In this document: piece after piece, positions 13,867-31,163 of the stretch | Layout of the letters: the number at the start of each line of letters is the position of its first letter | Numbering within the stretch: the first letter of the stretch is position 1 | The notes under the pieces: generated by a model | The model's input: only the letters and a program-made list of their open reading frames with translations | Told to the model about the DNA's origin: nothing | Databases searched by the model: none | Program-made: the position numbers and the translations under genes | Assembly (NCBI GenBank): GCA_024638765.1 | Contig: JAHEJT010000004.1 | Location: forward strand, 174-64,173 | Source of the DNA: Verrucomicrobiales bacterium | GTDB taxonomy: Bacteria > Verrucomicrobiota > Verrucomicrobiia > Verrucomicrobiales > DEV007 | Direction of reading: 5' to 3' | DNA: 64,000 nt

Positions 13867-15533
13867 TGATTTTCGCCCAGAACAGTCTCCCACCTTCCGC
13901 CGGTAATCTCGGAACGATCTGCGGAATTGTCCTCGCGTGTTACATGCTGGTCCTGCTTCTCATCGGTTTCGTGGGATACCTGCGCAGCCGCGGCACGGAA
14001 GAGGATTTTTATCTCGCGGGCCGGGGCCAAGGATTGCTCGTGACCGTGATGACAATCATGGCGACGTTTTTTTCGAGCGCGGCGATCCTGGGAATACCGG
14101 GAAACGTTTACAAGGACGGTGTGGCCTTCACGCTCTTTGCGCTGAATCTCCCCTGCGCGGGGGCTTGCATTTATCTTTTCGGCAGCCGCATCCGCCGCAT
14201 TGGCCGGAAACGACAATACGTCACCCAGGGTGATATGATTGCCGATTATTACGGCGATACGCCCCTGATCCGGTTGCTGGTGGCCACCATCGGATTCCTT
14301 TACGTTCTCCCTTACGTCATCATGCAGATTAAGGCGGGAGGATACCTGGCGCAGGGGATGTTTCCCGACGCGAGGACCGTGCCCATTCTCGGGACCGATT
14401 TCGGAATGTTCGAATTGGGCGCAACCGCGCTTTCGATCGTAACGATGTGCTACGTGCTTATCGGCGGGATGCGCTCCGTGGCCTGGACCGATGTCCTCCA
14501 GGGATTTCTCCTGTTCGGGGGCATGCTGGTGGCGGCGATCGCCACGATGGTGTCGCTCGGAGGAATCGGAGGCTTTTTCAAAGAGGTCTCGACACTCCCC
14601 CCGGAAGCCCTCTCGCTTCCGGGCCCTTCCGGGACGTGGACCCCGTGGAAACTGATGACGGTCTGCATCTTCGCGTCCATCGCATCGCTGATACAACCCG
14701 GTCAATGGATCCGGCTTTACGCCGCGCGCGATGACGCAACTTTAAAGAAATGCTCCCTGGTCTTCGCCATTGTCCTGCCCTCCTGCTTCCTCTTCGGCAT
14801 CATGCTGGTCGCGCTCGGTGGGCGAGCCCTCTTCCCGCCGGAAGTCGATGCGGACGTCATCCTCCCCCACCCTTTCGTGGGAGAATTCGACCAGATCGTC
14901 ATCGTGATGATCAAGGAACAGCTTCCACGCATGCTCGGCGTCGCCGGCGTGATACTCGTCGCGGTCATTCTGGTTGCGGTGCTCGCCGCATCCATGAGCA
15001 CTGCCGACAGCAATCTGCACGCCCTCAGCGCAGTCCTGACGCGTGATGTCTATGACCGATTGCTCCGGCCCGGGAGTTCGCAGCGCGAACGCGCCTGGAT
15101 CGGCCGTGTCGTGATTGTAGGCGCGACACTGCTGGCGCTCGGACTCGTTAACGCGGGCCACGACAACGAGGAATTCGCTCCGCTCAAGATGATCGCGGAT
15201 CTCATGTTCGCGGCCATCGCCTTCGCGTGCCAACTGCTTCCAGTCACCCTGGATATGCTCTACATCCGCAAGGGCACCAAAACGGGCGCGGCGGCCGGGA
15301 TGGTTGCCGGCATCGCGGTCGTTTTTCTTTTCACGCCTTTCCCGCACGCCCTTCTCGGGGACACTGCACTCTCCGAAAAAATTGAGAGCACTACCGGAAT
15401 CCTCAAGGCGCTCTTCGATGTCGGTTTCTGCGGCTTCGCGGTGAATTGTGCGGTTTTCGCGCTCGTAAGCCGGTTCACCCGTAAGTTGGAACCAGCGCAC
15501 AGGGAATCCTTTTCACGAGACTTGATTCAGTGA
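13866..15533 (+). CDS. Sodium:solute symporter (SSS) family transporter
   Basis: ORF 13788..15533 trimmed to ATG 13866. About 13 hydrophobic segments and the SSS-typical N-terminus (EDFYLAGRG). Confidence 0.85.
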   Translation: MIFAQNSLPPSAGNLGTICGIVLACYMLVLLLIGFVGYLRSRGTEEDFYLAGRGQGLLVTVMTIMATFFSSAAILGIPGNVYKDGVAFTLFALNLPCAGACIYLFGSRIRRIGRKRQYVTQGDMIADYYGDTPLIRLLVATIGFLYVLPYVIMQIKAGGYLAQGMFPDARTVPILGTDFGMFELGATALSIVTMCYVLIGGMRSVAWTDVLQGFLLFGGMLVAAIATMVSLGGIGGFFKEVSTLPPEALSLPGPSGTWTPWKLMTVCIFASIASLIQPGQWIRLYAARDDATLKKCSLVFAIVLPSCFLFGIMLVALGGRALFPPEVDADVILPHPFVGEFDQIVIVMIKEQLPRMLGVAGVILVAVILVAVLAASMSTADSNLHALSAVLTRDVYDRLLRPGSSQRERAWIGRVVIVGATLLALGLVNAGHDNEEFAPLKMIADLMFAAIAFACQLLPVTLDMLYIRKGTKTGAAAGMVAGIAVVFLFTPFPHALLGDTALSEKIESTTGILKALFDVGFCGFAVNCAVFALVSRFTRKLEPAHRESFSRDLIQ

Positions 15534-15559
15534 CAATCACACTCTAATCCTTTCACAAT

Positions 15560-16585
15560 ATGCACGCGGCCCGTTCCATTCCCGACTCCCCGCAGATTCT
15601 GGCGACGACCGTCGGTTCTTACCCGGTGCCGGATTGGTTGGCGGCGCTGCCCAGCGAGCAGGCCGTCATCGACGCCACGCGCGTCGTTTTTAATACACAG
15701 CGGGAGGCGGGCATTGACGTTCCTACCGATGGAGAACTTTACCGGTTCGATCCCAATCATCCCGACACCAACGGCATGATCGATTATTTCGTCGGCAGGA
15801 TGGGCGGGATCTCGACCCGCGTGGGCCGCAGCGACGGGGAGGCGTTCCGAGAAAAATCGGAAATGGGATGGCGCGCCAAACCCGCCGGTGTCGTCGAGGA
15901 CGCACTTTCCGAGGGAGGTTTAAACCTGCTCGATGATTGCCACCGGGCTGCGGAAGTCGCGGGAGGACCCTTCAAGTTCACGCTAACCAGTCCCTATATG
16001 CTGGCGCGCACACTCCTCGATCGGCATTACCGGGATTTCGAAGCGCTCACCATGGCCATCGCCGACGTCCTCGCGACACAGTCGCGCGGACTTCCTTGCG
16101 CCTGTGTCCAGGTCGACGAAGCCAATATCCCCGGTAACCCGGAGGACGCACCGCTTGCGGCAAAGGCCATCAACCGGGTGCTGGATGCGGTCGAGGTCGA
16201 AAAAGCCGTCCATTTCTGTTTCGGAAACTATGGCGGGCAGACAATCCAAAGCGGCAATTGGAGAGTGCTCATCGAATTCCTCAACAGCCTGCACGCGGAT
16301 CACCTGGTGCTGGAGCTGGCACACCGCCCGGAGAGCGATCTGGATGCGCTCGCGGATATCGAAGGAAAAATCGGCCTGGGGATCGGAGTAGTCGATATCA
16401 AGGTGAATCACGTCGAGACCGCGGATGAAATCGCGGCCGCCATCGAGAAAGCGGACCGTAAAACCGGCGGAGGGCGCGTCAAGTTCGTGCACCCGGACTG
16501 CGGATTCTGGATGCTGAAACGCTCGGTGGCGGATCGCAAGATCGAGGCTCTGGTGCGCGGGCGGGATAAGTTTCTGGGGGTGTGA
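15560..16585 (+). CDS. Cobalamin-independent methionine synthase (MetE C-terminal domain)-like zinc alkyltransferase
   Basis: TDGELYRFD and VQVDEANIPG. Putative Zn ligands are conserved: HFCFGNYGG (H, C), LVLELAH (E) and HPDCGFWM (C). Confidence 0.75.
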   Translation: MHAARSIPDSPQILATTVGSYPVPDWLAALPSEQAVIDATRVVFNTQREAGIDVPTDGELYRFDPNHPDTNGMIDYFVGRMGGISTRVGRSDGEAFREKSEMGWRAKPAGVVEDALSEGGLNLLDDCHRAAEVAGGPFKFTLTSPYMLARTLLDRHYRDFEALTMAIADVLATQSRGLPCACVQVDEANIPGNPEDAPLAAKAINRVLDAVEVEKAVHFCFGNYGGQTIQSGNWRVLIEFLNSLHADHLVLELAHRPESDLDALADIEGKIGLGIGVVDIKVNHVETADEIAAAIEKADRKTGGGRVKFVHPDCGFWMLKRSVADRKIEALVRGRDKFLGV

Positions 16586-18048
16586 TCTGTCCTGCGATGG
16601 CCTCCGCGGCACCATCCATCCTCGTCCGGGAAATCGCATTTCACGTGCTCCCCATGGAGACCCGCTTCCCGTTCCAATACGGGATCGCCAGCATGACGGC
16701 GCTGCCGCATCTTTTCGTCACGGCGCGTGTCCAGGTCGACGGAAGGGATACGACGGGAATGAGTTCGGACGGGCTTCCCCCGAAATGGTTTACGAAGAAC
16801 CCAGACACCACCTTTGAAGAGGATCTTCCGGAGATGATTGCCGTGATCCGGAATGCCGCAGACATCGTCACCGGCGAGAATACCCAGGTAAGCTTTTTCG
16901 ACCTTTGGCAACTCCTCTACGAAACACAGACCGAGTGGGCCGCGGAGAATGCAGTTCCTCCGCTCCTCGCCAATCTGGGCGTAAGCCTGGTGGAACGGGC
17001 GGTCCTCGATTCCGTTTGCCGTGGCCTGGAGACGCCTTTCCCGGCGCTGCTCCACAAGAATCTACTGGGCATCCGGCTTGGAGAGCTCTATTCCGAACTC
17101 GAAGGAACCGTTCCCTCGGATTATCTCCCCGCCATTCCCGGCAAAGAAATCATTGCGCGGCACACGGTAGGGCTCGGCGATCCACTCACTGAAACCGACG
17201 TCATTGAGCCGGTGAATGACGGTCTCCCCCAATCATTGGAAGCCTGCGTCGCAGCTTACGGGCTGGATCATTTCAAGATCAAGATCTGCGGCGTCCTCGA
17301 TCGTGACCGGGAACGGTTGCGCCGCCTTCACTCCCTGCTGGAGGCATCTGCGGGAGACGACTATTTCCTCACTCTCGACGGTAACGAGCAGTTCACGGAC
17401 ATGGCGGCGTTTCGAGAGCACTGGGAAGGCTGTCTGGAGGATGCCACCATTCGCGACTTGCTCACTCGCCTTCTCTTTGTGGAACAGCCGCTGCATCGAG
17501 ATCACGCGCTCAGTGAGGAGGTAAAGTCCGGCCTCGCGGATTGGCCCGGGGCGCCGCCGCTGATCATCGATGAATCGGAAGAAGAGATTGGTTGCCTCCA
17601 CCGGGCGCTGGAACTCGGTTATTCCGGCACCAGCCACAAGAACTGCAAGGGAATCGTCAAGGGGATCGCAAACGCCTGCCTCCTGGAATGCCGCCGCCGC
17701 AGCAACCCGGAGCAGGCTTACCTTCTCAGCGGAGAAGACCTGGCCAATGTGGGTCCCGTCGCCTTGCTCCAGGATCTCACGGTGATGGCGGTCCTGGGTA
17801 TCGCCCATGTCGAGCGCAACGGACACCATTACTTCAAAGGACTGAGCATGTTTCCCCGAGACACGCAGGACAGTATCCTCGCTTCGCACGGGGATCTTTA
17901 CCGCTACCACGAGGACGGATTTGCGACCCTGCGCATCGACAGAGGCCGCCTCTCGATCGCGAGTTTGCTGGAGGCGCCCTTCGGGACGCATCCCCTCATT
18001 GATGCAAGCCGGTTCCTGCCCCTGGACGAGTGGTTGCCGTCAGGTTGA
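16582..18048 (+). CDS. Enolase-superfamily protein (mandelate racemase / muconate lactonizing enzyme-like)
   Basis: FKIKICG (KxK), LDGNEQF, FVEQPL and IIDESEEE (metal ligands). The GTG start overlaps the upstream stop by 4 nt; ATG 16597 is an alternative. Confidence 0.7.
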   Translation: MICPAMASAAPSILVREIAFHVLPMETRFPFQYGIASMTALPHLFVTARVQVDGRDTTGMSSDGLPPKWFTKNPDTTFEEDLPEMIAVIRNAADIVTGENTQVSFFDLWQLLYETQTEWAAENAVPPLLANLGVSLVERAVLDSVCRGLETPFPALLHKNLLGIRLGELYSELEGTVPSDYLPAIPGKEIIARHTVGLGDPLTETDVIEPVNDGLPQSLEACVAAYGLDHFKIKICGVLDRDRERLRRLHSLLEASAGDDYFLTLDGNEQFTDMAAFREHWEGCLEDATIRDLLTRLLFVEQPLHRDHALSEEVKSGLADWPGAPPLIIDESEEEIGCLHRALELGYSGTSHKNCKGIVKGIANACLLECRRRSNPEQAYLLSGEDLANVGPVALLQDLTVMAVLGIAHVERNGHHYFKGLSMFPRDTQDSILASHGDLYRYHEDGFATLRIDRGRLSIASLLEAPFGTHPLIDASRFLPLDEWLPSG

Positions 18049-19089: not shown

Positions 19090-19497
19090 TCAGGGGTTCT
19101 TCTTATAAGCCAGAGAACCCGCCTGGATCTCGAGGAAGGGTTCGGCGGATTCGCGGGCTTCGACGGAAAGACCCGGCAGGCCGAAGGAGTTTCCGGCTAA
19201 GGCGCCGCTGGTTGCCGTCGCCCCGGAGACGATGTTGTCGATGGTGGCTTCGACATCGCCCGGGACCACGAAATCGACGCCGGCGACCTGGGCGGCGGAG
19301 CAAATGGAAGCGAGGGTCTGGGCGTTGCGGCGGTTTATGGTGGGATCGACCGCCTCACTGGTGAGCCCGATGACGGTGGGGATCAGGATTCCGGCCATGA
19401 TACCGATGACCATAATGACGACCAGCAATTCGACCATGCTGAAGCCGGGCGCAGGGCGGCGCCTTGGAGGAGCTGAGTTCCCGTGGGGATGAATCAT
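19090..19497 (-). CDS. Type IV pilin-like protein, paralog 1 (prepilin-type N-terminus, no Cys)
   Basis: Leader MIHPHGNSAPPRRRPAPG / FSMVELLVVIMVIGIMAGILIP. Shares NRRNAQTL..AAQVAGVDF..GLPGLS with 19797..20222 and 25059..25463. Confidence 0.85.
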   Translation of the reverse strand: MIHPHGNSAPPRRRPAPGFSMVELLVVIMVIGIMAGILIPTVIGLTSEAVDPTINRRNAQTLASICSAAQVAGVDFVVPGDVEATIDNIVSGATATSGALAGNSFGLPGLSVEARESAEPFLEIQAGSLAYKKNP

Positions 19498-19518
19498 GGT
19501 TAGAATCTCTAAAATCCA

Positions 19519-19547
19519 TATCTACACTAATTTTCAGGATTAGTCAA
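19519..19547 (-). promoter_or_regulatory. Candidate sigma70-type promoter of pilin paralog 1 (TTGACT-17-TAGATA), within the shared GCTTGACTAAT context
   Basis: The minus strand reads gcTTGACTaatcctgaaaattagtgTAGATAtgg. The -10 is weak because it lacks the terminal T. The -35 context is shared by all three pilin genes. Confidence 0.35.
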
Positions 19548-19796
19548 GCTATCTTGAGCATCGCCTCCCCAGGTGGACGGCGGTTCCAGGGAGGTCCATC
19601 GTTGCGCTTCAGACAGTTACCCGGCCTTCTTTCCCCGGATGGCGGCGGCGCTCTTCGCCAAAGCCAAGGCCTGCCGGGAGAAAGGCCGGACGGAGTGTGC
19701 CGGCAGGAGGAATCGCCCAGGTCTGTTATGCCGTTTCAGCTTCCGCGGGTCGCCGTCGAGATGCGCCCTCAGGCAGGCCGCCCTTAACCACCGGGG

Positions 19797-20222
19797 TCAG
19801 CTCCCGATATCGGCGTTATACACGAGCATGCCGTGCTCAATGGCAAGGTAGGTAGCGGCGCGCTGCTGTTCCACGACGCTGAGGCCGGGAACGCTGAAGG
19901 TGTGACCGGCAAAAACGCCTCCGTTGGGCACACCGCCGTCGACAATGTTCTGAACCGTGTTCTCGAGGCTGCCGGGGTCCAGGAAATCGAGACCCGCCAC
20001 CTGAGCCGAGACGAAGACGTTGGTGAGATTCTGTGCGTTGCGCCGGTCCTTGGCGAGTTTCGAGGAAACCTCATTGAGACCGGTGATGCTCGGAATCAGG
20101 ATCGACCCGAGGATTCCGATGATCGCGATCACCGTGAGCATTTCGATGAGGCTGAAACCGCCCTGTGACTTGCGGGCGAGCCTGCGACTCTTCTTCGTCC
20201 CCTGGAATAAAGCTTGTTTCAT
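19797..20222 (-). CDS. Type IV pilin-like protein, paralog 2
   Basis: ORF 19797..20510 trimmed to ATG 20222 (MKQALFQGTKKSRRLARKSQGG / FSLIEMLTVIAIIGILGSILIP). DRRNAQNL..SAQVAGLDF..SVPGLS. Confidence 0.85.
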   Translation of the reverse strand: MKQALFQGTKKSRRLARKSQGGFSLIEMLTVIAIIGILGSILIPSITGLNEVSSKLAKDRRNAQNLTNVFVSAQVAGLDFLDPGSLENTVQNIVDGGVPNGGVFAGHTFSVPGLSVVEQQRAATYLAIEHGMLVYNADIGS

Positions 20223-20250
20223 TTTCCCCTGTCCTATTCTCAACATTATG

Positions 20251-20279
20251 AATATTGCCGATTTTGCTGTATTAATCAA
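20251..20279 (-). promoter_or_regulatory. Candidate sigma70-type promoter of pilin paralog 2 (TTGATT-17-AATATT)
   Basis: The minus strand reads gcTTGATTaatacagcaaaatcggcAATATTcat, about 22 nt upstream of ATG 20222. Confidence 0.4.
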
Positions 20280-20627
20280 GCTTATTCTGCTCATTATTAG
20301 CAATTTTTTATTTTTACGGCTCTCATTTTTGAGAGGAGGGCCGGCCCTTGCGCGCTGCATGGGGCGACAAAGAGGGAGATAATTCACATAACTCATTGAA
20401 CATGAGTTATTTATAGATTCTTGCCGGGCCTGCTGGAGAATCCTTACGCGGTGCAAGCGTCGCGGAACCGGGGTGAGAGCGGGGAGCGGGAGTCCGAGGA
20501 CGCCCATCAAGGCACCGCAAGTGCGCGTCAGGGCATTGAAATCAAGGCGCCTCCCAAAGGGCGCCCGGGGGGAAGGGAGTCACGGACCGGGATCAGCCGG
20601 CGCCTCGCACCCCTCAAAGAGCTGGGA

Positions 20628-21068
20628 TTAGAGGGCCGCTGATTCGGGCTTGGAGAGCCCCCACTGCACCATCTGGGAGAGCTTTTCTACAGTCACCGGC
20701 TTGTGCAGCACCCCGAAAAATCCTTCGGCGCGGAACATCTTGCCGGCGCCTTCTTCGAAGTAGCCGCTGGTCGCGATGATGCGGATGTTCGGATCGAACT
20801 CGAGCAGGGCCTTGGCGGCTTCGATTCCGGAAAGACCACCTCCCGGAAAAGTGAGATCCATGATCACGAGCGAAATCGGCTCTCCGCACTCGTAATTCTC
20901 CCGATAGATATCGAGAGCTTCCTCGCCGTTGGCTGCCAAGACTGGCTTGTGCCCGAGAGTTTCGAGGACCGCTTTGGTCACCATGAGCATACCCTCTTCG
21001 TCGTCGACGACCAGGACCCTGGCCCCGCTTTCGACGCGAGGTTGATCTTCTGTTGCAGTAGATTCCAT
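20628..21068 (-). CDS. Stand-alone CheY-like response-regulator receiver protein
   Basis: ORF 20628..21116 trimmed to ATG 21068. VLVVDDEEG, LVIMDLTFPG (phospho-Asp), IIATSGY and HKP are all present. No output domain. Confidence 0.85.
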   Translation of the reverse strand: MESTATEDQPRVESGARVLVVDDEEGMLMVTKAVLETLGHKPVLAANGEEALDIYRENYECGEPISLVIMDLTFPGGGLSGIEAAKALLEFDPNIRIIATSGYFEEGAGKMFRAEGFFGVLHKPVTVEKLSQMVQWGLSKPESAAL

Positions 21069-21129
21069 TGTTTTCCTTGGTTTGTTTCTTATCCGCAGAT
21101 GTCGCTCCCGCGTCACAGCTTGCCAGTGT

Positions 21130-23304
21130 CTACGCGGTGTAACTCAGTCCCCGGATTTCCTCGAGAGTTGTGTTTCCAGCCAGGATGTTGCGAAGTCCTT
21201 CCTGGTAAAGCGTCAGCATGCCGTTTCTGGCGGCCAACTCGCGGAGCTTGCTTTGGGGGGCGCCTTCCTCGACGAGATCGCGCATCTCCATAGTCACGGT
21301 CGTCATTTCCATGAGAGCCAATCTCCCTTTGTAACCCGTGTTATGGCATTCCTCGCAGCCGACCTTCTCGTAAATGGGATGTTTCAGCTCGCCCTTGATT
21401 ATTCCCTGCTTTTGAAGAATCTCTTCGATTTCCTTGGTCTCTTCGGAAGGTCTCTTGCAGTAAGGGCAGATCCGGCGCACCAGCCTCTGTGCCTGGGTCA
21501 TGGCCAGAGAGTCGCAAAGCAGGAAGGCGGGCACCCCCATGGAAAGCAGCCGGGAGATAGCGCGCAGGCAGTCGTTAGCATGCAATGTGGTCAAGACGAG
21601 GTGACCCGTAAGCGCCGCATTCACTGCGGCGGTGGCGGTCTCTTCGTCGCGACACTCACCGATCAGAATGACATCCGGGTCGGAACGCAGTAAGGCGCGC
21701 AGACCTGTAAGGAAATCGATGCCGTGGATAACATCGGTCTGCGTCTGGTTGATCCCTTCGATTTCATATTCGATCGGGTCCTCGATAGTGTGAATGTTGA
21801 TATCCTCTTCATTGACGCTGTTGAGCAAGGCGTAAAGGGTGGTGGTTTTACCACTACCGGTCGGTCCCGTCACAAGGATGAGACCCTGGTCGCGCGTCAT
21901 GGCGTTGGCCACGATATCGCTTTGCCGCTTGGAGAAATTCAACTCCGAGAGTTCTTTCAAGCCGTCCTGCTTGTCGAGGAATCGAAGAATCAATTTCTGA
22001 AGATCCTTCCGGCAAGGTACCGCTGCGGCACGGACGTCGACGCGGCGCGAGCCAAGAGACATCGCAAAGCGACCGTCCTGGGTATCCTTCCGGTTCTGCC
22101 CCATGTTGGCATAGTTCTTGATCAGGGCGATGAATCGCGGGAGGAGTTCCTCGGAACCGCTGTAAATAGTTTTCAGACTCCCGTCGATACGGGCGCGGAA
22201 GCGGGCCGTGTTATAATAGCGCTCGAGATGGACGTCACTGGCGCCTGCCGAAACCGAGTTGTAAAGAACCCAGTGGATGATTTCTTCGGCACTATGATTG
22301 ACGTTCTTGGGATCGATCGCGTAAACATCCTCAGGAATGATTTCGACCAAGTTCGTGCTGTCGGAATAAGCGTAATCATCGTCAGAAAGCGTGGCCGAAT
22401 CCATGCTTAGGCCGATGTCGTTACTGCGGGCAATGGCTTTGCGGATGGCCTTGCTGTCAGCAAGGACGTTGACGAACTCGATGGGATCGTTGCCTGAGGA
22501 GAGCCATTCGTCCTCGAAGGCGTAATTCTTTTCGGTCTCGCTGAGCAGGTATACGCGATGCTTGCCGGTATAGACCGGGTAGACGCCGTGCTTTTCCAGG
22601 AGCAGGTTCGGAAACTCTTCCTGGCGAGGCGCGTCCTCGGGATTAAAGCAGAGCACCGGCCGGCTGGCCGCGAGATAATGGAGGGCGATTCCCAGATGCG
22701 GCTGTATCGCATTGAACTTGGCGATATCCATTTCATCGCCTTTTTTCGCCGCGTCATGGTAAGCGCGCGCAAGCCGCTCACGCTCCACTTCATCGTAGGG
22801 GTAATTCTTGATCAGCCAGTCAAAGGCCGCTTCCAAATTCCCCTGTTCGATCTCGGGTTTGGGGAGGTGCTCGAGAGGATTTTCCTTGGGCAGCGGATTC
22901 GCAGAAACGCGCTGCACGATTTCCCGGCGGATATTCTCGTACTGAGTGGGGTTAATCGCCACCTTGACACTGAGGCAATCAGGCACTCCCCAGACTTCCT
23001 CTGATTTAGGATTGTGGTGGGCGAAGACAAGCAGCGGGCCGAGGTTGGTTACGGGAAGCCAGGGCTCCTCGCTGTGGGGCCAGCGGCCGAGGTGGCGGAC
23101 CAGCATCTCCGCCTCTACGTTGCAGGAAGCGCGCGGCAGTTCCACCGGCATGATGCCAAAGTGAACGGCCACGCCTTCGAGCGAAACCAGGCTACTGGCT
23201 TCTTTAGGCTGATCCCGCTCCGGGTTCAACAGGCGCGATTCGAAGGCGGAACTCACTTCTCCGGCTTCGTTGCCTTGGTTGACTTCTACTTGGCCTAGGT
23301 TCAT
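21130..23304 (-). CDS. pilB: PilB/GspE-family secretion/pilus-assembly ATPase with a long N-terminal region
   Basis: Walker A GPTGSGKTTTLYA. Tetracysteine CPYCKRP...CEECHNTGYKGR. 724 aa. Confidence 0.9.
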   Translation of the reverse strand: MNLGQVEVNQGNEAGEVSSAFESRLLNPERDQPKEASSLVSLEGVAVHFGIMPVELPRASCNVEAEMLVRHLGRWPHSEEPWLPVTNLGPLLVFAHHNPKSEEVWGVPDCLSVKVAINPTQYENIRREIVQRVSANPLPKENPLEHLPKPEIEQGNLEAAFDWLIKNYPYDEVERERLARAYHDAAKKGDEMDIAKFNAIQPHLGIALHYLAASRPVLCFNPEDAPRQEEFPNLLLEKHGVYPVYTGKHRVYLLSETEKNYAFEDEWLSSGNDPIEFVNVLADSKAIRKAIARSNDIGLSMDSATLSDDDYAYSDSTNLVEIIPEDVYAIDPKNVNHSAEEIIHWVLYNSVSAGASDVHLERYYNTARFRARIDGSLKTIYSGSEELLPRFIALIKNYANMGQNRKDTQDGRFAMSLGSRRVDVRAAAVPCRKDLQKLILRFLDKQDGLKELSELNFSKRQSDIVANAMTRDQGLILVTGPTGSGKTTTLYALLNSVNEEDINIHTIEDPIEYEIEGINQTQTDVIHGIDFLTGLRALLRSDPDVILIGECRDEETATAAVNAALTGHLVLTTLHANDCLRAISRLLSMGVPAFLLCDSLAMTQAQRLVRRICPYCKRPSEETKEIEEILQKQGIIKGELKHPIYEKVGCEECHNTGYKGRLALMEMTTVTMEMRDLVEEGAPQSKLRELAARNGMLTLYQEGLRNILAGNTTLEEIRGLSYTA

Positions 23305-23365
23305 TTCGGGGCAGTCTCTAGTCTCTAGTTCTTCTTAAATCGGATTCTGGGAGGAAAGTCCGGTG

Positions 23366-23938
23366 CTATGGGGCGGCCTGAGGTGGGATCGGAGGGATCT
23401 TGGGTTCCGGATCCTGGCTGGTGTAACTTGAAAGCGCAGAAGACATCCGCCCTTGACCGGAAGTGCCATCCGCGCCATTGGTAAAATCGATTTTGATACC
23501 GCTGCCCGCTGTGCCGGCCTTTAACAGTTCGAAAACTTTTCCGTTCCATCGGATACGATAGGTCTCGTCGTCGCTGGAGACTGCAGGATCCCAGTAAGGA
23601 GTCACGTACGGTGAACCGGCGTCGGCCAGTTCGTCGTCAGGGTGCCGCCACTGCAAAGTGGTAAGGACATCCATCTCGTCATCGGTATTGGCATCATCCC
23701 GGGCGAGCACGATCTCGTAATTGGTCTGCCCGAAACTGGCGATACAGTTGTTCAGATGGTTGATGAGATCCTGTGCAGCCCCATTTTTCGAGCCCTCGCG
23801 CACGCGGCTGAAAGCGGCCAGGGCACCGGCGGTGAGCACTCCGACGATAGTGATGGTCGTCAGGATTTCAACCAGCGACATGCCTCCGCGATTGGTGCGC
23901 GCGGTGGATGAAATTCCTTTGTGAAGTGATGTCCTCAT
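23366..23938 (-). CDS. Pseudopilin / minor pilin (prepilin-type N-terminus)
   Basis: NRGG / MSLVEILTTITIVGVLTAGALAAF. Confidence 0.8.
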   Translation of the reverse strand: MRTSLHKGISSTARTNRGGMSLVEILTTITIVGVLTAGALAAFSRVREGSKNGAAQDLINHLNNCIASFGQTNYEIVLARDDANTDDEMDVLTTLQWRHPDDELADAGSPYVTPYWDPAVSSDDETYRIRWNGKVFELLKAGTAGSGIKIDFTNGADGTSGQGRMSSALSSYTSQDPEPKIPPIPPQAAP

Positions 23939-24002
23939 GTCTATCCAGCAGCTTCGGCGTAAAACCTGCGAACCGCGCCTGTCGCGGAAACCACAGGGCC
24001 GA

Positions 24003-24404
24003 TTAGTAGTCGATCGCGATTGACGATCCGCCTTCAGTCTTGGTCAGTCCGCATTTCTTCAGCGTGGTAACCGCCGTCGGCAACGCGAGACCATAGTTTG
24101 TCGGCATATAGCTGTTGAACGAGTTAGGCGCGAACGCCAGGTAAGGACTCACCAGGTTGTAGCGCTGCTCGCTCGTAGCGCCGCTCCAGGCAGTGCCCGC
24201 GGCGTCACGGCCGTTGGCCTGGACAAAAGAGGCAACTCCCATGTTCATCGCTTCCGCCCGGGCGATGGCGAGGTTGGTTTCGCTGTCGCTCTTCATCTGC
24301 ACGATATTGGGAATCGCGAGGAAAGCCATAATGCCGAGGATGGCGACCGCGGCGAGGACTTCCACCAGGGAAAAGCCTTTTACTAGGGACGTCGAGTGTT
24401 TCAT
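24003..24404 (-). CDS. Pseudopilin / minor pilin
   Basis: VKG / FSLVEVLAAVAILGIMAFLAIPNI. Confidence 0.8.
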   Translation of the reverse strand: MKHSTSLVKGFSLVEVLAAVAILGIMAFLAIPNIVQMKSDSETNLAIARAEAMNMGVASFVQANGRDAAGTAWSGATSEQRYNLVSPYLAFAPNSFNSYMPTNYGLALPTAVTTLKKCGLTKTEGGSSIAIDY

Positions 24405-24434
24405 TGGAGTCTCCGATTTTCGATTTGTGGCAGT

Positions 24435-24890
24435 TTAGGATTTGATGAGACTTACTTTGGGATAAGAGGAAGATTGCCACGTTGGAAGCTCCAACCACCA
24501 TCCCAGCTTCACCATCGCGTGCGTTTGCAGGCGCGTGTTATTGGTGGTGTGATCCGTAAAGTGATCCATGGTCTCCTCGTCGAGATAAGGTTGAATCAGA
24601 TCCTCGAGTCGTTCTTGGAAAGTCCGAGCCGTGCCCCCGTCTTCGTTGTAGAGCAGGCGGGCGTCCTCGACGGTATTGAGCCCGGAGATTTCGCTGGCAA
24701 CCCAGGCGTTGACCGCGGTTTGCAAGGTAGCCTGTTGCTGACGGGCGATGACCCGGCGAGTGTCCTGGGAGGCGTTCGAGAACTGGCTGACCGCCAGGGC
24801 TCCCATGATCGCGATCACGGAGATGACAAGGAGGAGTTCCACGAGGGTAAATCCCCCCCTGCGCTTGTGCTTGTCTTTCAGGATATTCAT
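24435..24890 (-). CDS. Pseudopilin / minor pilin (G7 tract at the leader cleavage-site codons)
   Basis: MNILKDKHKRRGG / FTLVELLLVISVIAIMGALAV. Confidence 0.8.
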   Translation of the reverse strand: MNILKDKHKRRGGFTLVELLLVISVIAIMGALAVSQFSNASQDTRRVIARQQQATLQTAVNAWVASEISGLNTVEDARLLYNEDGGTARTFQERLEDLIQPYLDEETMDHFTDHTTNNTRLQTHAMVKLGWWLELPTWQSSSYPKVSLIKS

Positions 24891-24974
24891 TCGCGGGCTT
24901 CGGGTGTGATGAGATTTTGTCGAAGTAAGCGCTGGCGATTGGGGAGTGCGGAAAATTCGTAGAGGGGAAATATT

Positions 24975-25015
24975 TTGTGGAGAAAGGGCCCTCCGGCGCC
25001 GAAGCGCCGGAGGGC
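24975..25015 (-). terminator. Strong hairpin terminator after pilin paralog 3
   Basis: The minus strand reads GCCCTCCGGCGC-TTCG-GCGCCGGAGGGC (12-bp perfect stem, UUCG loop) followed by CCTTTCTCC. A second 7-bp hairpin lies at 25029..25051. Confidence 0.6.
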
Positions 25016-25058
25016 ATTGACAATTTTGTTTCAGCTAAACTTCAGCTGAAAGCCGTGA

Positions 25059-25463
25059 TCAGGTGCCGCCACCGGGAAGGTAAACGAGCATTCCGTCCGC
25101 GGTGAGGTCCAGGAAGGTACCCGCGCGGCCCTGCTCCAGGGAGCTCAAGTTCGGAACACCAAAGAAGGTGCCGTTGAACGGGCTGCCTGCGGCAGACACG
25201 GTCGCACCGGTGACAACCTTGGCGATGGTGTTGCCTTCGTTGCCGCTCACGAGGAAGTCGAGCCCAGCGGCTTGCGCCGAAGCGTAGACAGAAGCGAGGT
25301 TCTGCGCGTTACGCTTGCTCTTGGCTTCTTCGGCTGCATCGTTGATCCGGCCGATATTCGGCACGGCGATAGCGGCGATAATGCCGATGACTGCGATAAC
25401 GACGAGCATTTCAACAAGGCTGAAGCCCGAAGTATTTTTCTTTGCGATTAGTTTCGTATTCAT
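25059..25463 (-). CDS. Type IV pilin-like protein, paralog 3 (candidate major pilin; own promoter and terminator)
   Basis: ORF 25059..25493. ATG 25463 gives MNTKLIAKKNTSG / FSLVEMLVVIAVIGIIAAIAVP. KRNAQNL..SAQAAGLDF..GVPNLS. ATG 25493 is an alternative start. Confidence 0.85.
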   Translation of the reverse strand: MNTKLIAKKNTSGFSLVEMLVVIAVIGIIAAIAVPNIGRINDAAEEAKSKRNAQNLASVYASAQAAGLDFLVSGNEGNTIAKVVTGATVSAAGSPFNGTFFGVPNLSSLEQGRAGTFLDLTADGMLVYLPGGGT

Positions 25464-25532
25464 TGGTTTTGTTTCTCCAGTTATACAATGCATGACTTTT
25501 ATTGATTTTATAAGGCCATGTATAGTTGCCGG

Positions 25533-25561
25533 AATATTCCATAATTTCTATAATTAGTCAA
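25533..25561 (-). promoter_or_regulatory. Candidate sigma70-type promoter of pilin paralog 3 (TTGACT-17-AATATT) in an AT-rich island
   Basis: The minus strand reads ccTTGACTaattatagaaattatggAATATTcc. Confidence 0.4.
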
Positions 25562-25693
25562 GGAATTGCTATGGATTTTATGGAAATTGCCGGAAAAATT
25601 TCCCCGTAGCCTTCGCATTGGGGCCAGCATCCCCTGCTCTCGGTCCCCGAGAGTGAAGATTTCGTTATAACTCGTTGATTACGAGCTATTTAC

Positions 25694-26920
25694 TTAACTT
25701 TTCGGCAGGATGGTATCGCCGAGGCTGAAGATCGGGCCGTAAATGGCGTACACCAGGAGACCTACCAGGCTGCCCAGCGCCATGATCGTGATCGGCTCAA
25801 TGATCTTATCAATCTGACTCGCGATCGCGTCCAACTCCTCTTCATAGTCGTCCGCGATCTCGTTGAGCGGCTCGGTGCCCGAGCCCGTCTCCCCAGCGAC
25901 CTCCATGATTCCGCAGATGTTGCGGCCGTCGTCCCCCAGCCAGTGGGACTCCACCATGAAGCTCTCCTGAATGGAGCGCCCTTCCGAGATATGGTCCCTG
26001 ACCCGGTTGAAAAACTCCTTGTAATAGTAATTGCCCGCCCCATCCGAGGTGATGTCCAGGGCAGTGTTCAGACGCACATTCGAATCCACCAGCATGGACA
26101 GCGTGCGGAAGCTGACCGTGGCAGCCGCTTTGCGGATGATATTTCCCAGCACCGGAATCCTCACCATCACCTTCTGAACCGGCGTCTGACTCATGATCCA
26201 TCCCCATTTCTTAAAGAGCATCACCAGCCCGACTATCGGGATAAGCACGAGGTAAGGCTGTTTCAATAGGGTGTCGGAAAGCTTCATGAGAACCATGGTC
26301 GGCAGTGGCAATTCCGCCTTGAGCGAACCGTAAAGTTTCACCATCGCCGGCACCAAAGTGAAACTCATGGTAATGATGACGCCCAGCCCCAGAGTCAGGA
26401 CGATGGCCGGGTAAATCATCCCGCCGCGAAGCTTCCGGATGATGGTCATGGTCTTCTTCTGCCCGGTGGCAAGCTGCCGGAATACCCGGGGCAGCTGCCC
26501 GGATTCTTCACCGGCCCGGATCAGGGCCAGGATCTCCGTGGTGAACACCCGGGGATGTTTGGCCATGGCGTCACTTATTTTTTCACCATTGGAGATATCG
26601 TGGCAGAGATCGGCTATGATCCCCCGGTAAACCGGAGATTTCATGCGGTTGCTCTGCAACTGGAAACTCTTGACCGTGGGAATGTCTCTCTCAAAACACT
26701 TTGCCAGACCGCTGAAAAACGCCACGCGGTCAGCCAAGGGCAGGCTGGGGCTCGTCAGCCGCTGAATCTTCTCATCCAGTCCCGTGATGGTGGTGACTTG
26801 GGCAGTCTCACTGGTAGTTTGTCCCGCGCCGATCAGGGCGCGATCATCGCTAAAGGTGTCGACGAGCAAGTGCATTACCCGTCCTGTATGAACATTGGTC
26901 AGAGAGACTTTCTTAAGCAT
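25694..26920 (-). CDS. pilC: PilC/GspF-family inner-membrane platform protein
   Basis: 408 aa. Duplicated GspF-type domains with three TM segments, and a typical C-terminus (AIYGPIFSLGDTI). Confidence 0.9.
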   Translation of the reverse strand: MLKKVSLTNVHTGRVMHLLVDTFSDDRALIGAGQTTSETAQVTTITGLDEKIQRLTSPSLPLADRVAFFSGLAKCFERDIPTVKSFQLQSNRMKSPVYRGIIADLCHDISNGEKISDAMAKHPRVFTTEILALIRAGEESGQLPRVFRQLATGQKKTMTIIRKLRGGMIYPAIVLTLGLGVIITMSFTLVPAMVKLYGSLKAELPLPTMVLMKLSDTLLKQPYLVLIPIVGLVMLFKKWGWIMSQTPVQKVMVRIPVLGNIIRKAAATVSFRTLSMLVDSNVRLNTALDITSDGAGNYYYKEFFNRVRDHISEGRSIQESFMVESHWLGDDGRNICGIMEVAGETGSGTEPLNEIADDYEEELDAIASQIDKIIEPITIMALGSLVGLLVYAIYGPIFSLGDTILPKS

Positions 26921-26980: not shown

Positions 26981-27430
26981 CTAGCGAATCGTATTTCGAA
27001 AGGCGCGCACCGAGAATTGGCGCGTCGGCAACGTCCCCTGAGATCCGCCGGTCCAGGAGCCCTCGGTCCAACCCCCTTCGTCCTTCACGGAATCAAGAGT
27101 GAGCGTAATCACCTGTCCCTCCAGGTTGGCTTCAGCGGGCGAGACGGTCACAAAGGTCGGTGCGCCGCTCCGGGCGGGCTCGGGTGGCATGATAGCTCCG
27201 ATTGCCGCCGGATCGAGGCCCAACTGGTAAAGGCGGGCATGGCATTCCAGGTAATTGACCCCGCGCGCCAGACGATGGCCCATTTCCTCCTGGGTCGTCA
27301 TCGTCAGGCTGAAGGAAGCAGCTGCGCTGATCCCTATCAGGAGAATTCCGCTAGCGACGAGCACTTCTATGAGCGAATAGCCCGAACCCTTCTTCCGCGC
27401 TGTTTGTGTATGAAATTCTGCTGGTTTCAT
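26981..27430 (-). CDS. Pseudopilin / minor pilin
   Basis: KKGSG / YSLIEVLVASGILLIGISAAASF. The start overlaps the upstream stop by 4 nt. Confidence 0.8.
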   Translation of the reverse strand: MKPAEFHTQTARKKGSGYSLIEVLVASGILLIGISAAASFSLTMTTQEEMGHRLARGVNYLECHARLYQLGLDPAAIGAIMPPEPARSGAPTFVTVSPAEANLEGQVITLTLDSVKDEGGWTEGSWTGGSQGTLPTRQFSVRAFRNTIR

Positions 27431-28821
27431 TTTCTATACATCTCTATCCAGGCGTTACGCACATCAAAGCCGGCAAGGCTCAGCGGATCGACAGCCTCTG
27501 CAAACACGTCGACTCGGCCGGGCCCCCCAAGATTCTCCTGAATAATGCTCCGGTCAGTTCGGATTCCTCCCTTTAATGTCACGGTCCCGCCGAAAGCGTT
27601 CTGAAGCCTCGTCGTCGTGTTCTCCACAACCAGCATCAGACGCCACTGCGGGTTGGAATTGGAGTTCCAGAAAACCACGCCGGTTTCTCCCCCTCCGGGA
27701 GGATCCTTCTTGACTCCGAGAATCAGCAGGCGGTTGTTGGCGCCTAACATGAAAACCGATCTGAGATCGTTCAGGTCGGTCGGCCGCTGATTAAGCACGA
27801 TATAAAGGGGTGGAAGTAACGCGGCGTTGGCATAGTCCGTCGGCGTCTCCTGTCCCTGCAGAAAGAGCCACTGCGCGTTTTCGATGTAGGCGCCTTCCAG
27901 GGCGCCGTCATCCAGTTGGATCGTGACGGTGCCACTGCCGTCGGATATGACCCCACGGTCGGGTCCGTGCGCCGTATTTCCGTTGACCGACACCGGGCCC
28001 TTGGAGAGCACTACCTGATAAAGGGAGTTTTCCTCGTTTCCAACGCCGGGGCGGATGACGTTCAGCTCTCCGCCGTAAGCTTCCGCTCCTGAATACTTGT
28101 TGTTGGTTCTGGGCGGAAAGGGGTAATTGCTTGGAAAAACGGCCGGACCGGTGGGATCTACCGGGCTCTGCAATGCCAAAGTCGATGTGGGCAACGGCGG
28201 GGTGATGTAGTCGATGGAAGTCAAGGTGCCCATATTGCCACCGGGTTCCGCCGTATAGATGAGCGATCGGCCGTAGATATTGAGACTTCCATCGACGAGA
28301 TTCGTCTCCCCCGGACTCAGTGTCGGCGTGTGCAGTGCGAAGATTTCTCCGCTCAGCGGACTGGAGCGCGATCGGATCTGCGCGGTGTAAGTCTCCGCGG
28401 ACACACCTTGCTTATCTGAAACGACGAAATCCAAGTCCTGGGTGTTGAGGGTGCCGGAAGACGTGGCAAACTGGTTGAACAACCCGGTGGTCGGGGATGC
28501 CAGCGGCGACTGGGCCCATGTCGCGGGGGCCGGAATCTCGTACCTAAACCAATTGCCGGTTCCGAGGACCGCGGGGGAAACGGTCGGCGGAGTGGTTTCC
28601 GTGACTACGTCCCGGTAAATCTTTTCCTTGGCGGCAGCCTTACTGTTTTGGATGCTGATACGGCGGTCCATGGTGAGGTCAAGCGCGTCAACGGCGTTAA
28701 TGCGCGCGTTGATCAGGGAGACCCAAGCGGTGAGGCCGAGGGTTCCCAGAAGGCATATAACAAGCGCCATAATCGCGATGCTGCCTTTCTGACCTTTTCT
28801 TGGTGAGATAGTTCTTTTCAT
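27427..28821 (-). CDS. Large (464 aa) PilX/GspK-like minor pilin lacking Glu5
   Basis: ORF 27427..29145 trimmed to ATG 28821. N-terminus MKRTISPRKGQKGSIAIMALVICLLGTLGL resembles the E5-less GspK/PilX_N type. The rest has no motif I recognise. Confidence 0.55.
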   Translation of the reverse strand: MKRTISPRKGQKGSIAIMALVICLLGTLGLTAWVSLINARINAVDALDLTMDRRISIQNSKAAAKEKIYRDVVTETTPPTVSPAVLGTGNWFRYEIPAPATWAQSPLASPTTGLFNQFATSSGTLNTQDLDFVVSDKQGVSAETYTAQIRSRSSPLSGEIFALHTPTLSPGETNLVDGSLNIYGRSLIYTAEPGGNMGTLTSIDYITPPLPTSTLALQSPVDPTGPAVFPSNYPFPPRTNNKYSGAEAYGGELNVIRPGVGNEENSLYQVVLSKGPVSVNGNTAHGPDRGVISDGSGTVTIQLDDGALEGAYIENAQWLFLQGQETPTDYANAALLPPLYIVLNQRPTDLNDLRSVFMLGANNRLLILGVKKDPPGGGETGVVFWNSNSNPQWRLMLVVENTTTRLQNAFGGTVTLKGGIRTDRSIIQENLGGPGRVDVFAEAVDPLSLAGFDVRNAWIEMYRK

Positions 28822-28846
28822 TTTGATCGGTGAAATCACGGTGACA

Positions 28847-29872
28847 TTAAAAGGCAGGAAACATTGGAAACACGAACATGTAGCTGGTTCGCCCTCCCAT
28901 CCAGGCGTACTCAGACACCGGATTGGAGGCCGGAAGGGCGGCAGGCAGTTCGTCCACTCGCATGGATGAAGCACCGGGATCCGGCCACCACATGAAGTAA
29001 AAAGGCCTGTTCTCCGCGACCTTGAACCGGTCGGCCCAATTTCTTTCCGCCGCGATATCGTCATCTTCGACGATCGAAAGCCGGCTCCGGCGTTCAAAAG
29101 AGACGAAAAGCGGCCGAAAAAGCACCTCATTGTCCACCTGCCCATAGAAGCAATCGTAGTAATTGGTAAGTCTCATCGGCAGACTTGCCACCGCTTGGTC
29201 CGGCGCGTAGCGGCGCACGGAGACGTAAGTGCCCGCGGGACTTGACGGCACGATCAGGTCGATCTCATAGATGGCCAGAGTATTCAGAAGAGACTCATCG
29301 TTGTTTTGCCGGAACATGAATATCGTTCCGCTGCTGGCGTCTCCCGCGACATTGAAGTAGGCCGGAGCATTTTCGAAAATCAAGCCGGCATCCGGTATCA
29401 TCGCGATAAGGTGTTGGCGGAAAGCCTCCGGTGTATCCAGCATGGGGGTGCCGGCGGGGAAATTGATGGCCTCGTCCGGATGTGGGGAAGGTCGGACTGT
29501 ATTAAGCTTGTTTCTCCCCAGACAAAAAATCGCGGAAGCACGTTCGACGTCTTCATAAAAACGCCCGCGTAATTCATCAGAGCGCGCCATTCTTCCGTAG
29601 TTTGGCGTCGCATAGACGTTTATGCTGCTCTGCGGCAGATCATACAGGTTCGTAAGCACGGTGTTATCCGGGAAAGTCACCGTAACAACGCTCGAAAGCC
29701 TCTTGTTATTCGAGGTGATGCTCTGGAAAACGAGGGAAGCCGCACTGAATGCCAGCGCGGAAATGCTCAAAGCAGCCAGAGCTTCAATCAGGGTGAACCC
29801 ATGTCCCCCCGTAGACTGCCGTACCGTCCCTCTTGGGGCGATCCGGAGTCTTCTTGGCCATTTCTTCTTCAT
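28847..29872 (-). CDS. Large (341 aa) pilin-like protein with a canonical prepilin N-terminus
   Basis: GGHG / FTLIEALAALSISALAFSAASLVF. Confidence 0.7.
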   Translation of the reverse strand: MKKKWPRRLRIAPRGTVRQSTGGHGFTLIEALAALSISALAFSAASLVFQSITSNNKRLSSVVTVTFPDNTVLTNLYDLPQSSINVYATPNYGRMARSDELRGRFYEDVERASAIFCLGRNKLNTVRPSPHPDEAINFPAGTPMLDTPEAFRQHLIAMIPDAGLIFENAPAYFNVAGDASSGTIFMFRQNNDESLLNTLAIYEIDLIVPSSPAGTYVSVRRYAPDQAVASLPMRLTNYYDCFYGQVDNEVLFRPLFVSFERRSRLSIVEDDDIAAERNWADRFKVAENRPFYFMWWPDPGASSMRVDELPAALPASNPVSEYAWMGGRTSYMFVFPMFPAF

Positions 29873-29973: not shown

Positions 29974-30585
29974 TCAGTTCTTCTTCCCTCCAGGACCCTC
30001 GCCAAAGGAAGGCAAAGAAACGACACCTTCCCTCGCCTTCTTCGTCTGGGTGTAGGTCTGGATGTCTCGTTCCTTGGCATTGCTGTCTCCAGGTTGTCCT
30101 TTGAGGACAAACTCGACGCTTGGTTCCATGTTGATCGGTAAAATAAGTTTTCTGCCGTCGTAACGGGATGTTCTCTTGTCCAGCCAGGCCAGCTCCGCCT
30201 GTACTTCCGAAACGTCGCTGACAATAATCAACTCGGTCTGCCCCTTAAGGAGCTTGGGAACGAGTTTCCCTTTTTCCAGGATCAGATCTCCCACGAGAAC
30301 CTTAACCGAGCCGTTGTCGCCTTCGCTGACACCGTTGACAGCGAGATTGGCGAAAATCCTCCGGATCCGGCTTTCTTCGGACTCCTTGTCATAATAGGCT
30401 TGAACCTGTTTTTCGGCTCGGACTGCAAAGGGATTCCTTTCCGATTCCGGAATAATGATCGGACTTTTCTGCTCCGGGAGGATCCCGATGGCTAAAGCGG
30501 TTTCCTGTGCTTTCGAAGAAAGCGCGCAGAGCGATAACAGGGCCGAGAGAAGGCTGCAAAGTTTCAATGAGTTTCGCGATTTCAT
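29974..30585 (-). CDS. Secreted hypothetical protein in the PilP position
   Basis: ATG 30585 gives the signal peptide MKSRNSLKLCSLLSALLSLCALSSKAQE. A TTG at 30606 that overlaps the upstream stop is an alternative. Assigned by position only. Confidence 0.5.
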   Translation of the reverse strand: MKSRNSLKLCSLLSALLSLCALSSKAQETALAIGILPEQKSPIIIPESERNPFAVRAEKQVQAYYDKESEESRIRRIFANLAVNGVSEGDNGSVKVLVGDLILEKGKLVPKLLKGQTELIIVSDVSEVQAELAWLDKRTSRYDGRKLILPINMEPSVEFVLKGQPGDSNAKERDIQTYTQTKKAREGVVSLPSFGEGPGGKKN

Positions 30586-30602
30586 GGCGACTTGATTCTG
30601 CT

Positions 30603-31163
30603 TCAACTATTTTCGTTTCCTTGTCCGGTCTGAATCAGGGGAACATCCATGAGCACCTCTATATTGATGTCATTGCCCCCTCCTCCTTTGGAAATCCGGT
30701 AAGTCGAAATTCTTGAGGTGGGCATGCTTTCTTCCAAGTGTCCCAGCCAGTTCATGGTCTTAATGTATTCATCCTGAATCTTCAGATGCGCCCTCAATCT
30801 TTTCTGGATGAATCCGCTCTTACTCTTTTGACCGAGGATCTGGGTGCGTTGTGAGGTCGCGAACACCTGTCCGGATTTGATCAGTTCGATAATGCGCTGC
30901 TCCTCCTGCTCGGTATTCCAGGTGCTGGCCATGTAAGGCAGCCATTTTTCAAAGTACTCACGTAACCCCGAGGACTTTTGCTTGAGATCGGTAAGCTTCT
31001 TCTCGGACTCGCCTCGTTGAAACTCAGACGCTTTAGCCTTGGATTCAGCGTCCCCTGCTTCCTTCCGGATGCTATTCAGTTCACTTCGCATTTTTTGCAT
31101 CCCGTAACCCACAATCGCGATGAGCAGTGCGATCACAATGCATGCCATTTGTTTCTCTTTCAT
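30603..31163 (-). CDS. Bitopic coiled-coil protein in the PilO position
   Basis: One N-terminal TM (ACIVIALLIAIVGYG) followed by a charged coiled coil. Assigned by position and topology only. Confidence 0.5.
   Translation of the reverse strand: MKEKQMACIVIALLIAIVGYGMQKMRSELNSIRKEAGDAESKAKASEFQRGESEKKLTDLKQKSSGLREYFEKWLPYMASTWNTEQEEQRIIELIKSGQVFATSQRTQILGQKSKSGFIQKRLRAHLKIQDEYIKTMNWLGHLEESMPTSRISTYRISKGGGGNDINIEVLMDVPLIQTGQGNENS

Follow-up and report, generated by a model that had tools for sequence, protein, structure and literature searches.

We analysed a window of 64 kb (64,000 nt; contig JAHEJT010000004.1 of the Verrucomicrobiales bacterium assembly GCA_024638765.1) in which three paralogous pilin genes, here called A, B and C, belong to a pilus gene cluster spanning about 19.0 to 33.7 kb on the minus strand. 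Judging from its predicted products, the locus encodes a type IV pilus-like machine, with a secretin, a PilT-like ATPase, a PilC platform protein, a PilB ATPase, several minor pilins and a receiver-only regulator encoded alongside the three paralogs. Read downward from 33.7 kb, the order is PilT-like ATPase, four proteins without family assignment, a 341-residue pilin-like protein, a protein of 464–572 residues, the small pilin-like protein G, PilC, A, the small pilin-like proteins D, E and F, PilB, the receiver protein, B and C; the secretin gene is on the plus strand. Coordinates are collected in Table 1.

The initial annotation had described A, B and C as paralogs that align along their full length, and this agrees with the three minus-strand open reading frames (ORFs) found here, which align end to end with 48% identity between A and B and 41% between A and C. 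It had also named a similarity confined to the generic N-terminal helix as an outcome that would count against paralogy. With the leader and the first 30 mature residues removed (local BLOSUM62 alignment, 500 shuffles), the three pairs scored 141–186 (z = 20–33, none of 500 shuffles as high), while every pair that included one of the four other small pilin-like genes (D–G) stayed at z < 4, so the similarity is not limited to the helix. The proposed shared motifs GFS[LM][VI]E[ML]L, [KR]RNAQ[NT]L, AQ[VA]AG[LV]DF and a C-terminal L[VA]Y are present, but G[LV]P[GN]LS does not hold throughout, as B reads SVPGLS. The description of the proteins as free of cysteine needs similar narrowing: A and B contain none but C contains one (ASICSAAQ), so it is the absence of a disulfide pair that holds for all three. 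Translation of A likely starts at 25463 rather than at 25493, because the leaders of its orthologues are 10–12 residues long.

All three proteins have a class III signal peptide (G−1, F1, E5) and match the N-terminal methylation models PF07963 (N_methyl; 26–34 bits, cut-off 21.2) and TIGR02532 (23–30 bits, cut-off 16.3). F1, E5, G14 and P22 are present in each; G14 and P22 are invariant in a 50-sequence family alignment, and among the five other pilin-like proteins checked (D–G and the 341-residue protein) only E has both. B and C keep all 19 family-invariant residues. We found no C-terminal disulfide-bonded D-region of the type IVa kind in any of the three, and models of named pilin families fell well short of their cut-offs, in most cases matching nothing beyond the N-terminal helix: the PilA equivalog NF041775 reached 19–34 bits (cut-off 400, N-terminal region only), GspG TIGR01710 24–33 bits (cut-off 88.85, B and C matched over the helix only), ComGC NF040999 19–32 bits (cut-off 75) and the Verru_Chthon cassette model TIGR02596 12–22 bits (cut-off 70), while TIGR02599 matched only A (15 bits, cut-off 256.5) and the GspH model was likewise far under its cut-off. 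By these predicted features A, B and C are pilin-class proteins, and true full-length paralogs, without the type IVa disulfide.

Each paralog is preceded by a promoter-like unit. The 64 kb contain exactly three copies of the element CTTGAYTAAT, one upstream of each paralog on the strand of that gene (0.07 occurrences expected; 0 of 100 shuffles gave three or more), and a repeat finder independently recovered it as the 21-nt family D3. Its layout is sigma-70-like, with a −35 hexamer TTGAYT, a 17-nt spacer and a −10 hexamer AATATT (A, B) or TAGATA (C), and no sigma-54 promoter (TGGCAC-N5-TTGC) was found upstream of any paralog. Orthologues of A in many genomes have TTGAC...TTATRG...ATTATA at the matching place, followed by long CA-rich leaders; in 1.4 Mb of related loci the pattern ATTATRG-N1-4-ATTAT occurs nine times, and seven of these occurrences fall in the promoter zone of family genes, a zone that accounts for 0.9% of the searched sequence. 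A related locus with two family members (L091) keeps TTGA at −35 and AATATTCATAATRTTRAGAAT upstream of its B-like gene, with a different spacer, and repeats CTTGACT...TAGATA...CTAACC upstream of its second, C-like gene, while the contig with the closest orthologue of B (L090) ends in CTTGACT about 105 nt past that gene. By this comparison the putative promoters of B and C show phylogenetic footprints (in L091 and partly in L090). The earlier suggestion that each pilin has its own transcription signals is thus supported on the promoter side at all three genes.

Two further features were seen in the promoters of the family. A 9-bp unit, AATTATAGT / AATTATGG, is tandemly repeated in several of them (L084, three copies, at about 2240–2270 and 3205–3225; L019, L021 and L042; window 25541–25554), and might be a candidate binding site for a regulator, not merely a −10-like sequence. 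A-type genes of L027–L059 (the Prosthecobacter/Verrucomicrobiaceae group) have a conserved upstream TCCATAATTCGAG, then a short stretch able to form a hairpin, and a long leader rich in CA and poor in G (for example ...CAACAGCCAAACACACACA...) that has no evident Shine-Dalgarno sequence and resembles a conserved 5′ leader.

As proposed earlier, A sits between an AT-rich promoter island (a 230-nt gap at 40% GC) and a hairpin with a 12-bp stem and a UUCG loop. The central 26 nt of this hairpin fold at −25.6 kcal/mol, the surrounding 99-nt region has z = −6.3, and the weak U tract that follows (CCUUUCUCC) is the reason why termination may be only partial. A simple scan for canonical terminators found none at the three genes, and only the hairpin after A was prominent. 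A hairpin of −12 kcal/mol or stronger lies within 120 nt past the stop in 44 of 63 family genes in relatives, mostly orthologues of A and many with U tracts, and the relatives likewise have a single orthologue between PilC and the minor pilins, preceded by an AT-rich, sigma-70-like promoter region, in keeping with the view of A as a separately promoted main pilin bounded by a terminator. Elsewhere in the cluster, a 60-nt structure (−24.3 kcal/mol) at 20563–20622 on the minus strand, 5 nt past the stop of the receiver gene and in the first part of the 405-nt gap that precedes B, may end the PilB–receiver transcript.

Searches returned 672 homologues of A (best 69% identity), among which every match with an organism name was from Verrucomicrobiota, 51 of B (best 84%, then 61–62%) and 9 of C (best 47–49%, apart from the window's own protein). 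Some of the named matches to A are annotated "PilA". A genome scan placed the family in Verrucomicrobiales, Akkermansiaceae, Verrucomicrobiaceae (Prosthecobacter, Brevifollis) and a few Chthoniobacterales, and an exhaustive profile search gave 1,080 clusters (50% identity) at E ≤ 1e-10, of which 119 reached E ≤ 1e-30. Three related loci (L001, L002, L092) have an A-type gene exactly between PilC and three small genes, followed by PilB and the receiver protein, with no B- or C-type gene after the receiver. D, E and F occupy the same positions in relatives, and their heads have no similarity to those of A, B or C.

Copy number, which the initial annotation had recommended surveying in related genomes, does vary. 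A head-domain profile run on 83 related loci matched in 59, most with one member per ~20 kb and four with tandem pairs, compared with three members in the window. The two tandem members in L084 lie in a 12.8-kb stretch without a pilus-assembly gene, and this is the only long contig with a confirmed accessory-clade pair; those in L091, a 1.6-kb contig, are 290 nt apart, and the B–C gap in the window is 299 nt. One confirmed member in L085 is followed by a 133-residue gene that does not match the head profile. A metagenome-assembled genome (MAG) labelled Akkermansia muciniphila (L026, 9923–11455) has two longer, distant members in tandem (152 and 174 residues) beside a 1176-residue gene, away from pilus-assembly genes.

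In a neighbour-joining tree A falls within a tight clade of machinery-linked pilins, and a second clade, with long branches, contains B and C. The three genes are therefore not the equivalent copies that had been assumed, since A belongs to a slow clade tied to the machinery whereas B and C do not, and most relatives have neither B nor C in the locus. Ratios of nonsynonymous to synonymous substitution rates (dN/dS, Nei–Gojobori) were 0.17–0.18 for A against its orthologues, 0.18 (L090) and 0.37 (L091) for B, and 0.32 for C against the second gene of the L091 pair (50% identical), values that are rough because dS (0.9–2.2) is near saturation. With all 19 invariant residues kept and dN/dS of 0.18–0.37, B and C appear to be maintained genes, less constrained than A. 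We rejected a recent duplication of A into B and C, which are in a different clade at dS of about 1.5, and antigenic variation by silent cassettes of the Neisseria pilS type, as B and C are each a complete gene with its own leader and promoter.

What sets the family apart is its head, a compact domain of about 88 residues without a disulfide and with the signature RRNAQNL...AQAAG.DF...F.VP.LS...L.Y. No Pfam or NCBIfam family covers it in the three pilins. AlphaFold, run with the 50-sequence alignment, predicted for full-length A (predicted local distance difference test, pLDDT, 91.3) a long N-terminal α-helix of 50 residues (16–65) with a globular head; the head-only model reached pLDDT 95.4 and a predicted TM-score (pTM) of 0.86. 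The predicted head has helices at 76–85 and 108–115 and strands of only 2–3 residues, and the four-stranded antiparallel β-sheet of solved pilins was not seen in it. Foldseek searches of the PDB gave best E-values of 1.7 (full length) and 2.5 (head only) with no pilin among the matches; the top matches, ribosomal protein chains and the kinase DYRK1A, were treated as noise (TM-scores < 0.35, none below E = 1). A sequence-profile search of the PDB matched solved pilins, including PilA5 (chain 8qqj), across the N-terminal helix only. These comparisons suggest that the head has no structural neighbour in the PDB, and are suggestive rather than firm because they start from a prediction and a small domain.

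The head also occurs outside pilins. Of the top 146 representatives that the exhaustive search alone had returned, 11 proteins of 215–822 residues (P0204, P0227, P0220, P0225, P0265, P0309, P0173, P0174, P0192, P0193 and P0172; loci L087–L089) have two to four complete head copies and no prepilin motif, with four copies in P0204 and three each in P0227, P0220, P0225, P0265 and P0309, per-domain E-values down to 1e-20, and no Pfam or NCBIfam family for the repeats. Tandem copies in proteins of this kind mark the head as a putative autonomous domain common to pilins and non-pilin proteins. By eye, some of these proteins have an apparent signal peptide start or a membrane-spanning stretch, and a weak match of P0220 to a YscD-type cytoplasmic domain stays under the cut-off. 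It is possible, and we put it forward tentatively, that the head is an undescribed autonomous domain of unclassified fold that Verrucomicrobiales use in two ways, fused to a pilin helix to build pili and as two to four tandem copies in secreted or membrane-anchored non-pilins; filaments of A, B and C would then have a new subunit architecture, with the accessory pair providing switchable surfaces.

For the locus itself we consider it fairly likely that A is the main pilin, made from its own promoter, and that B and C are an accessory tandem pair working on the same machine as alternative or mixed-in subunits. A would be the main filament subunit of this machine; it belongs to a Verrucomicrobiales-wide pilin family that joins a normal N-terminus (leader ending in G, then F1, E5, G14 and P22) to the ~88-residue head. 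Its transcription would start at a strong sigma-70-type promoter of its own, within the AT-rich gap between PilC and A. An own promoter together with a downstream hairpin is a familiar route to an excess of filament subunit, and with both, the cell could produce far more of A than of the minor pilins and the ATPase encoded downstream. B and C would be a tandem pair that is older and evolves faster, drawn from an accessory clade of the family of A, each with a promoter of the same design; because they keep all family-invariant residues and a filament-type N-terminal helix, they most likely share with A both the prepilin peptidase that processes them and the machine that assembles them. They may serve as alternative filament subunits, or be mixed into A filaments and change their surface properties under particular conditions, so that the notion of interchangeable major pilins put forward in the initial annotation is plausible.

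Several observations weigh against this interpretation. No prepilin peptidase gene turned up in those window ORFs that were scanned with Pfam, although one may sit elsewhere in the genome. The promoter calls are consensus matches with imperfect −10 hexamers (AATATT, TAGATA), and the signals proposed for each gene fall short on the side of termination, as B and C have no clean terminator (best structures imperfect, −16.7 and −11.9 kcal/mol) and the hairpin after A, lacking a good U tract, may be a stabiliser of the mRNA rather than a terminator. Codon usage does not single out A: the share of pyrimidine-ending codons is 0.68–0.76 in the three paralogs against a background of 0.50, but PilB, PilT and the secretin share the preference (0.63–0.68), so it is no proof that A is the most highly expressed. 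Purifying selection on B and C is gauged by the rough dN/dS values given above. The closest orthologue of B (L090, 85–453; 78–84% identity) has no GFxxxE and misses part of the hydrophobic helix (MKRKTSDKSKLSVSIIGILSAILIP...); either pilin processing has truly been lost there, or the 563-nt contig is misassembled. The head in non-pilin proteins also leaves room for a role of B and C outside filaments.

Such a role, with B and C as membrane-anchored or periplasmic proteins whose head does another job, as it presumably does in the multi-repeat non-pilins, would suit the proteins that lack a prepilin motif yet have two to four complete head copies in tandem, the missing GFxxxE in L090 and the accessory-clade pairs that lie away from the machinery in other genomes. 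We regard it as quite improbable, since B and C have an intact class III signal peptide (G−1, F1, E5, G14, P22) and adjoin the machinery in this genome, and orphan genes are common among genuine pilins. B and C might instead be low-abundance minor pilins that prime or decorate A filaments, not alternative main subunits, given that they are more divergent and less widespread than A, that most related loci do without them and that their leaders are longer (22 and 18 residues, compared with 13 in A). This too is unlikely: at least five other pilin-like genes already occupy conserved minor-pilin positions in the locus, B and C have the entire head and the G14/P22 helix in common with the main pilin, and each has a promoter of the A design, unlike the tightly packed D, E and F genes with their gaps of 30–64 nt.

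A different question is whether the machine is a pilus at all. A type II secretion system, with A, B and C as GspG-like pseudopilins forming a periplasmic piston, would suit the slightly better match of the secretin to GspD than to PilQ and the similar scores of the ATPase and platform protein on the GspE/GspF and PilB/PilC models. We nevertheless hold this to be very improbable, because the GspG model gave the three pilins scores well short of its cut-off (B and C on the helix only), a PilT/PilU-like ATPase is part of the conserved locus, no GspC, GspL or GspM family was detected in Pfam and NCBIfam scans of the locus, and a separate strong promoter and a terminator around one pilin gene are what is expected for the main subunit of a surface pilus. 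Finally, the long branches and few homologues, above all for C, could be read as decay of functionless duplicates, which is scarcely credible for ORFs that are intact, retain every family-invariant residue, have dN/dS in the range above and recur as a pair with their promoters in another organism (L091).

Like the type IVa major pilins (PilA of Pseudomonas and Myxococcus, PilE of Neisseria), the three proteins have a class III signal peptide with F1, E5, G14 and P22 in a predicted helix of ~50 residues, and the gene of the putative main pilin lies near those for PilB, PilC, PilT and the secretin, with its own promoter and a downstream hairpin. They differ in lacking the C-terminal disulfide and D-region, in their size (mature proteins of 117–121 residues, leaders of 13–22), in the head predicted for A, with two short helices and very short strands, for which Foldseek retrieves no solved pilin, in the sigma-70-like promoter without a sigma-54 element and in their low PilA equivalog scores. 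GspG is similar in size and has an N-terminal helix and no disulfide, but its model scores low here (N-terminal only for B and C), the structural search gave no match and the locus has a PilT-like ATPase. Two major pilins, PilA4 and PilA5, give Thermus thermophilus two pilus types (PMC7203116), which offers a model for alternative filaments from one cell with more than one main-type pilin gene per genome; A, B and C differ as paralogs of one family, known from their sequence, and matched PilA5 through the N-terminal helix only. ComGC, the major pilin of the competence pilus of Bacilli, has a purely helical head (PMC7212644) and is likewise a small pilin with a non-canonical head, whereas the head here is predicted to combine helices with short strands, no ComGC entry came up in Foldseek, the ComGC model scored below cut-off, and the host is diderm with a secretin and a PilT-like ATPase in the locus. 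In the same phylum, a pilus of Akkermansia muciniphila has been proposed from a secretin (PilQ/Amuc_1098) and from filaments seen by electron microscopy, in passages of a paper that identify no pilin subunit (PMC4960237). More distant family members occur in MAGs labelled Akkermansia (L026, L032), but the secretin here scores just 63 bits on the model of the Amuc_1098 family, whose cut-off is 750.

The presence of several pilin paralogs under separate promoters is a known and ordinary theme in pilus biology. A literature search found no characterised main pilin from Verrucomicrobia or Akkermansia, and the present family, of about 1,080 clusters, is the likely main pilin family of Verrucomicrobiales, organised as a conserved promoter–gene–terminator unit with an accessory tandem pair in some genomes. 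It provides concrete targets for proteomics, antibodies and cryo-electron microscopy. The head, which combines the lack of a disulfide, of a Pfam or NCBIfam family and of a match among solved structures with reuse as a repeat in non-pilins, deserves specialist attention.

Table 1 Genes and sequence features of the pilus locus in the window.
Feature	Position	Strand	Description
Pilin C	19090-19497	-	135 aa, 18-residue leader, 117-residue mature protein, one Cys; most divergent paralog
Promoter-like unit of C	19519-19548	-	CTTGACTAAT; −35 TTGACT, 17-nt spacer, −10 TAGATA
Pilin B	19797-20222	-	141 aa, 22-residue leader, 119-residue mature protein; accessory-clade paralog
Promoter-like unit of B	20251-20280	-	CTTGATTAAT; −35 TTGATT, 17-nt spacer, −10 AATATT
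Receiver-only response regulator	20628-21116	-	PF00072; after PilB in L001, L002 and L092 too
PilB/GspE-type assembly ATPase	21130-23304	-	724 aa; PF00437 348 bits; TIGR02538 395 bits (cut-off 676)
Pilin-like F	23366-23938	-	Presumed minor pilin
Pilin-like E	24003-24404	-	Presumed minor pilin
Pilin-like D	24435-24890	-	Presumed minor pilin; N_methyl matches for the D-E-F group (region 23366-24890)
Hairpin, 12-bp GC stem with UUCG loop	24988-25015	-	43 nt past the stop of A; perfect stem; likely terminator or attenuator
Second hairpin, AU-rich, 10 bp	25029-25051	-	Directly after the stop of A
Pilin A	25059-25463	-	ORF; 134 aa, 13-residue leader, 121-residue mature protein
AT-rich PilC-A intergenic region	25464-25693	-	230 nt, 40% GC (about 59% in window coding sequence)
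Promoter-like unit of A	25533-25562	-	CTTGACTAAT; −35 TTGACT, 17-nt spacer, −10 AATATT preceded by TG
PilC/GspF-type platform protein	25694-26920	-	PF00482; PilC and GspF models match below equivalog cut-offs
Pilin-like G	26981-27430	-	5′ of PilC
Protein of about 464-572 aa	27427-29145	-	Among the genes upstream of PilC (26981-29872)
341-aa pilin-like protein	28847-29872	-	Upstream of PilC
Four proteins	29974-32642	-	No Pfam/NCBIfam family; between PilT-like ATPase and pilin-like genes
PilT/PilU-like ATPase	32644-33702	-	352 aa; PF00437; TIGR01420 268 bits (cut-off 319)
Secretin	34006-35970	+	PF00263; GspD and PilQ models match below cut-offs; divergent from the rest of the locus

Among the remaining genes of the locus, the four conserved proteins next to the PilT-like ATPase (210, 186, 189 and 289 residues) have genes of similar size at matching positions in L001, L002 and L092, and lie where alignment proteins of the PilM/N/O/P type might be expected. 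The 572-residue ORF overlaps the gene for the 341-residue pilin-like protein by about 300 nt, and its true start is probably the internal MKRTISPRKGQKGS... at about 28821, giving a protein of about 464 residues. A 932-residue hybrid histidine kinase is encoded at 36297–39095, just past the secretin gene, and may control the pilus motor jointly with the receiver protein, whose gene closes the pilus locus in relatives too. Scans of the whole window with Rfam (gathering thresholds) and for tRNA genes returned nothing. The flanks (194–18048 and 36297–63704) encode sulfatases (4566–9308, 9028–10563 and 53238–55157), DUF7133/HEAT or cytochrome c proteins, xylose-isomerase-like TIM barrels and 3-keto-disaccharide hydrolases, a content that suggests a polysaccharide-degrading Verrucomicrobium as the host.

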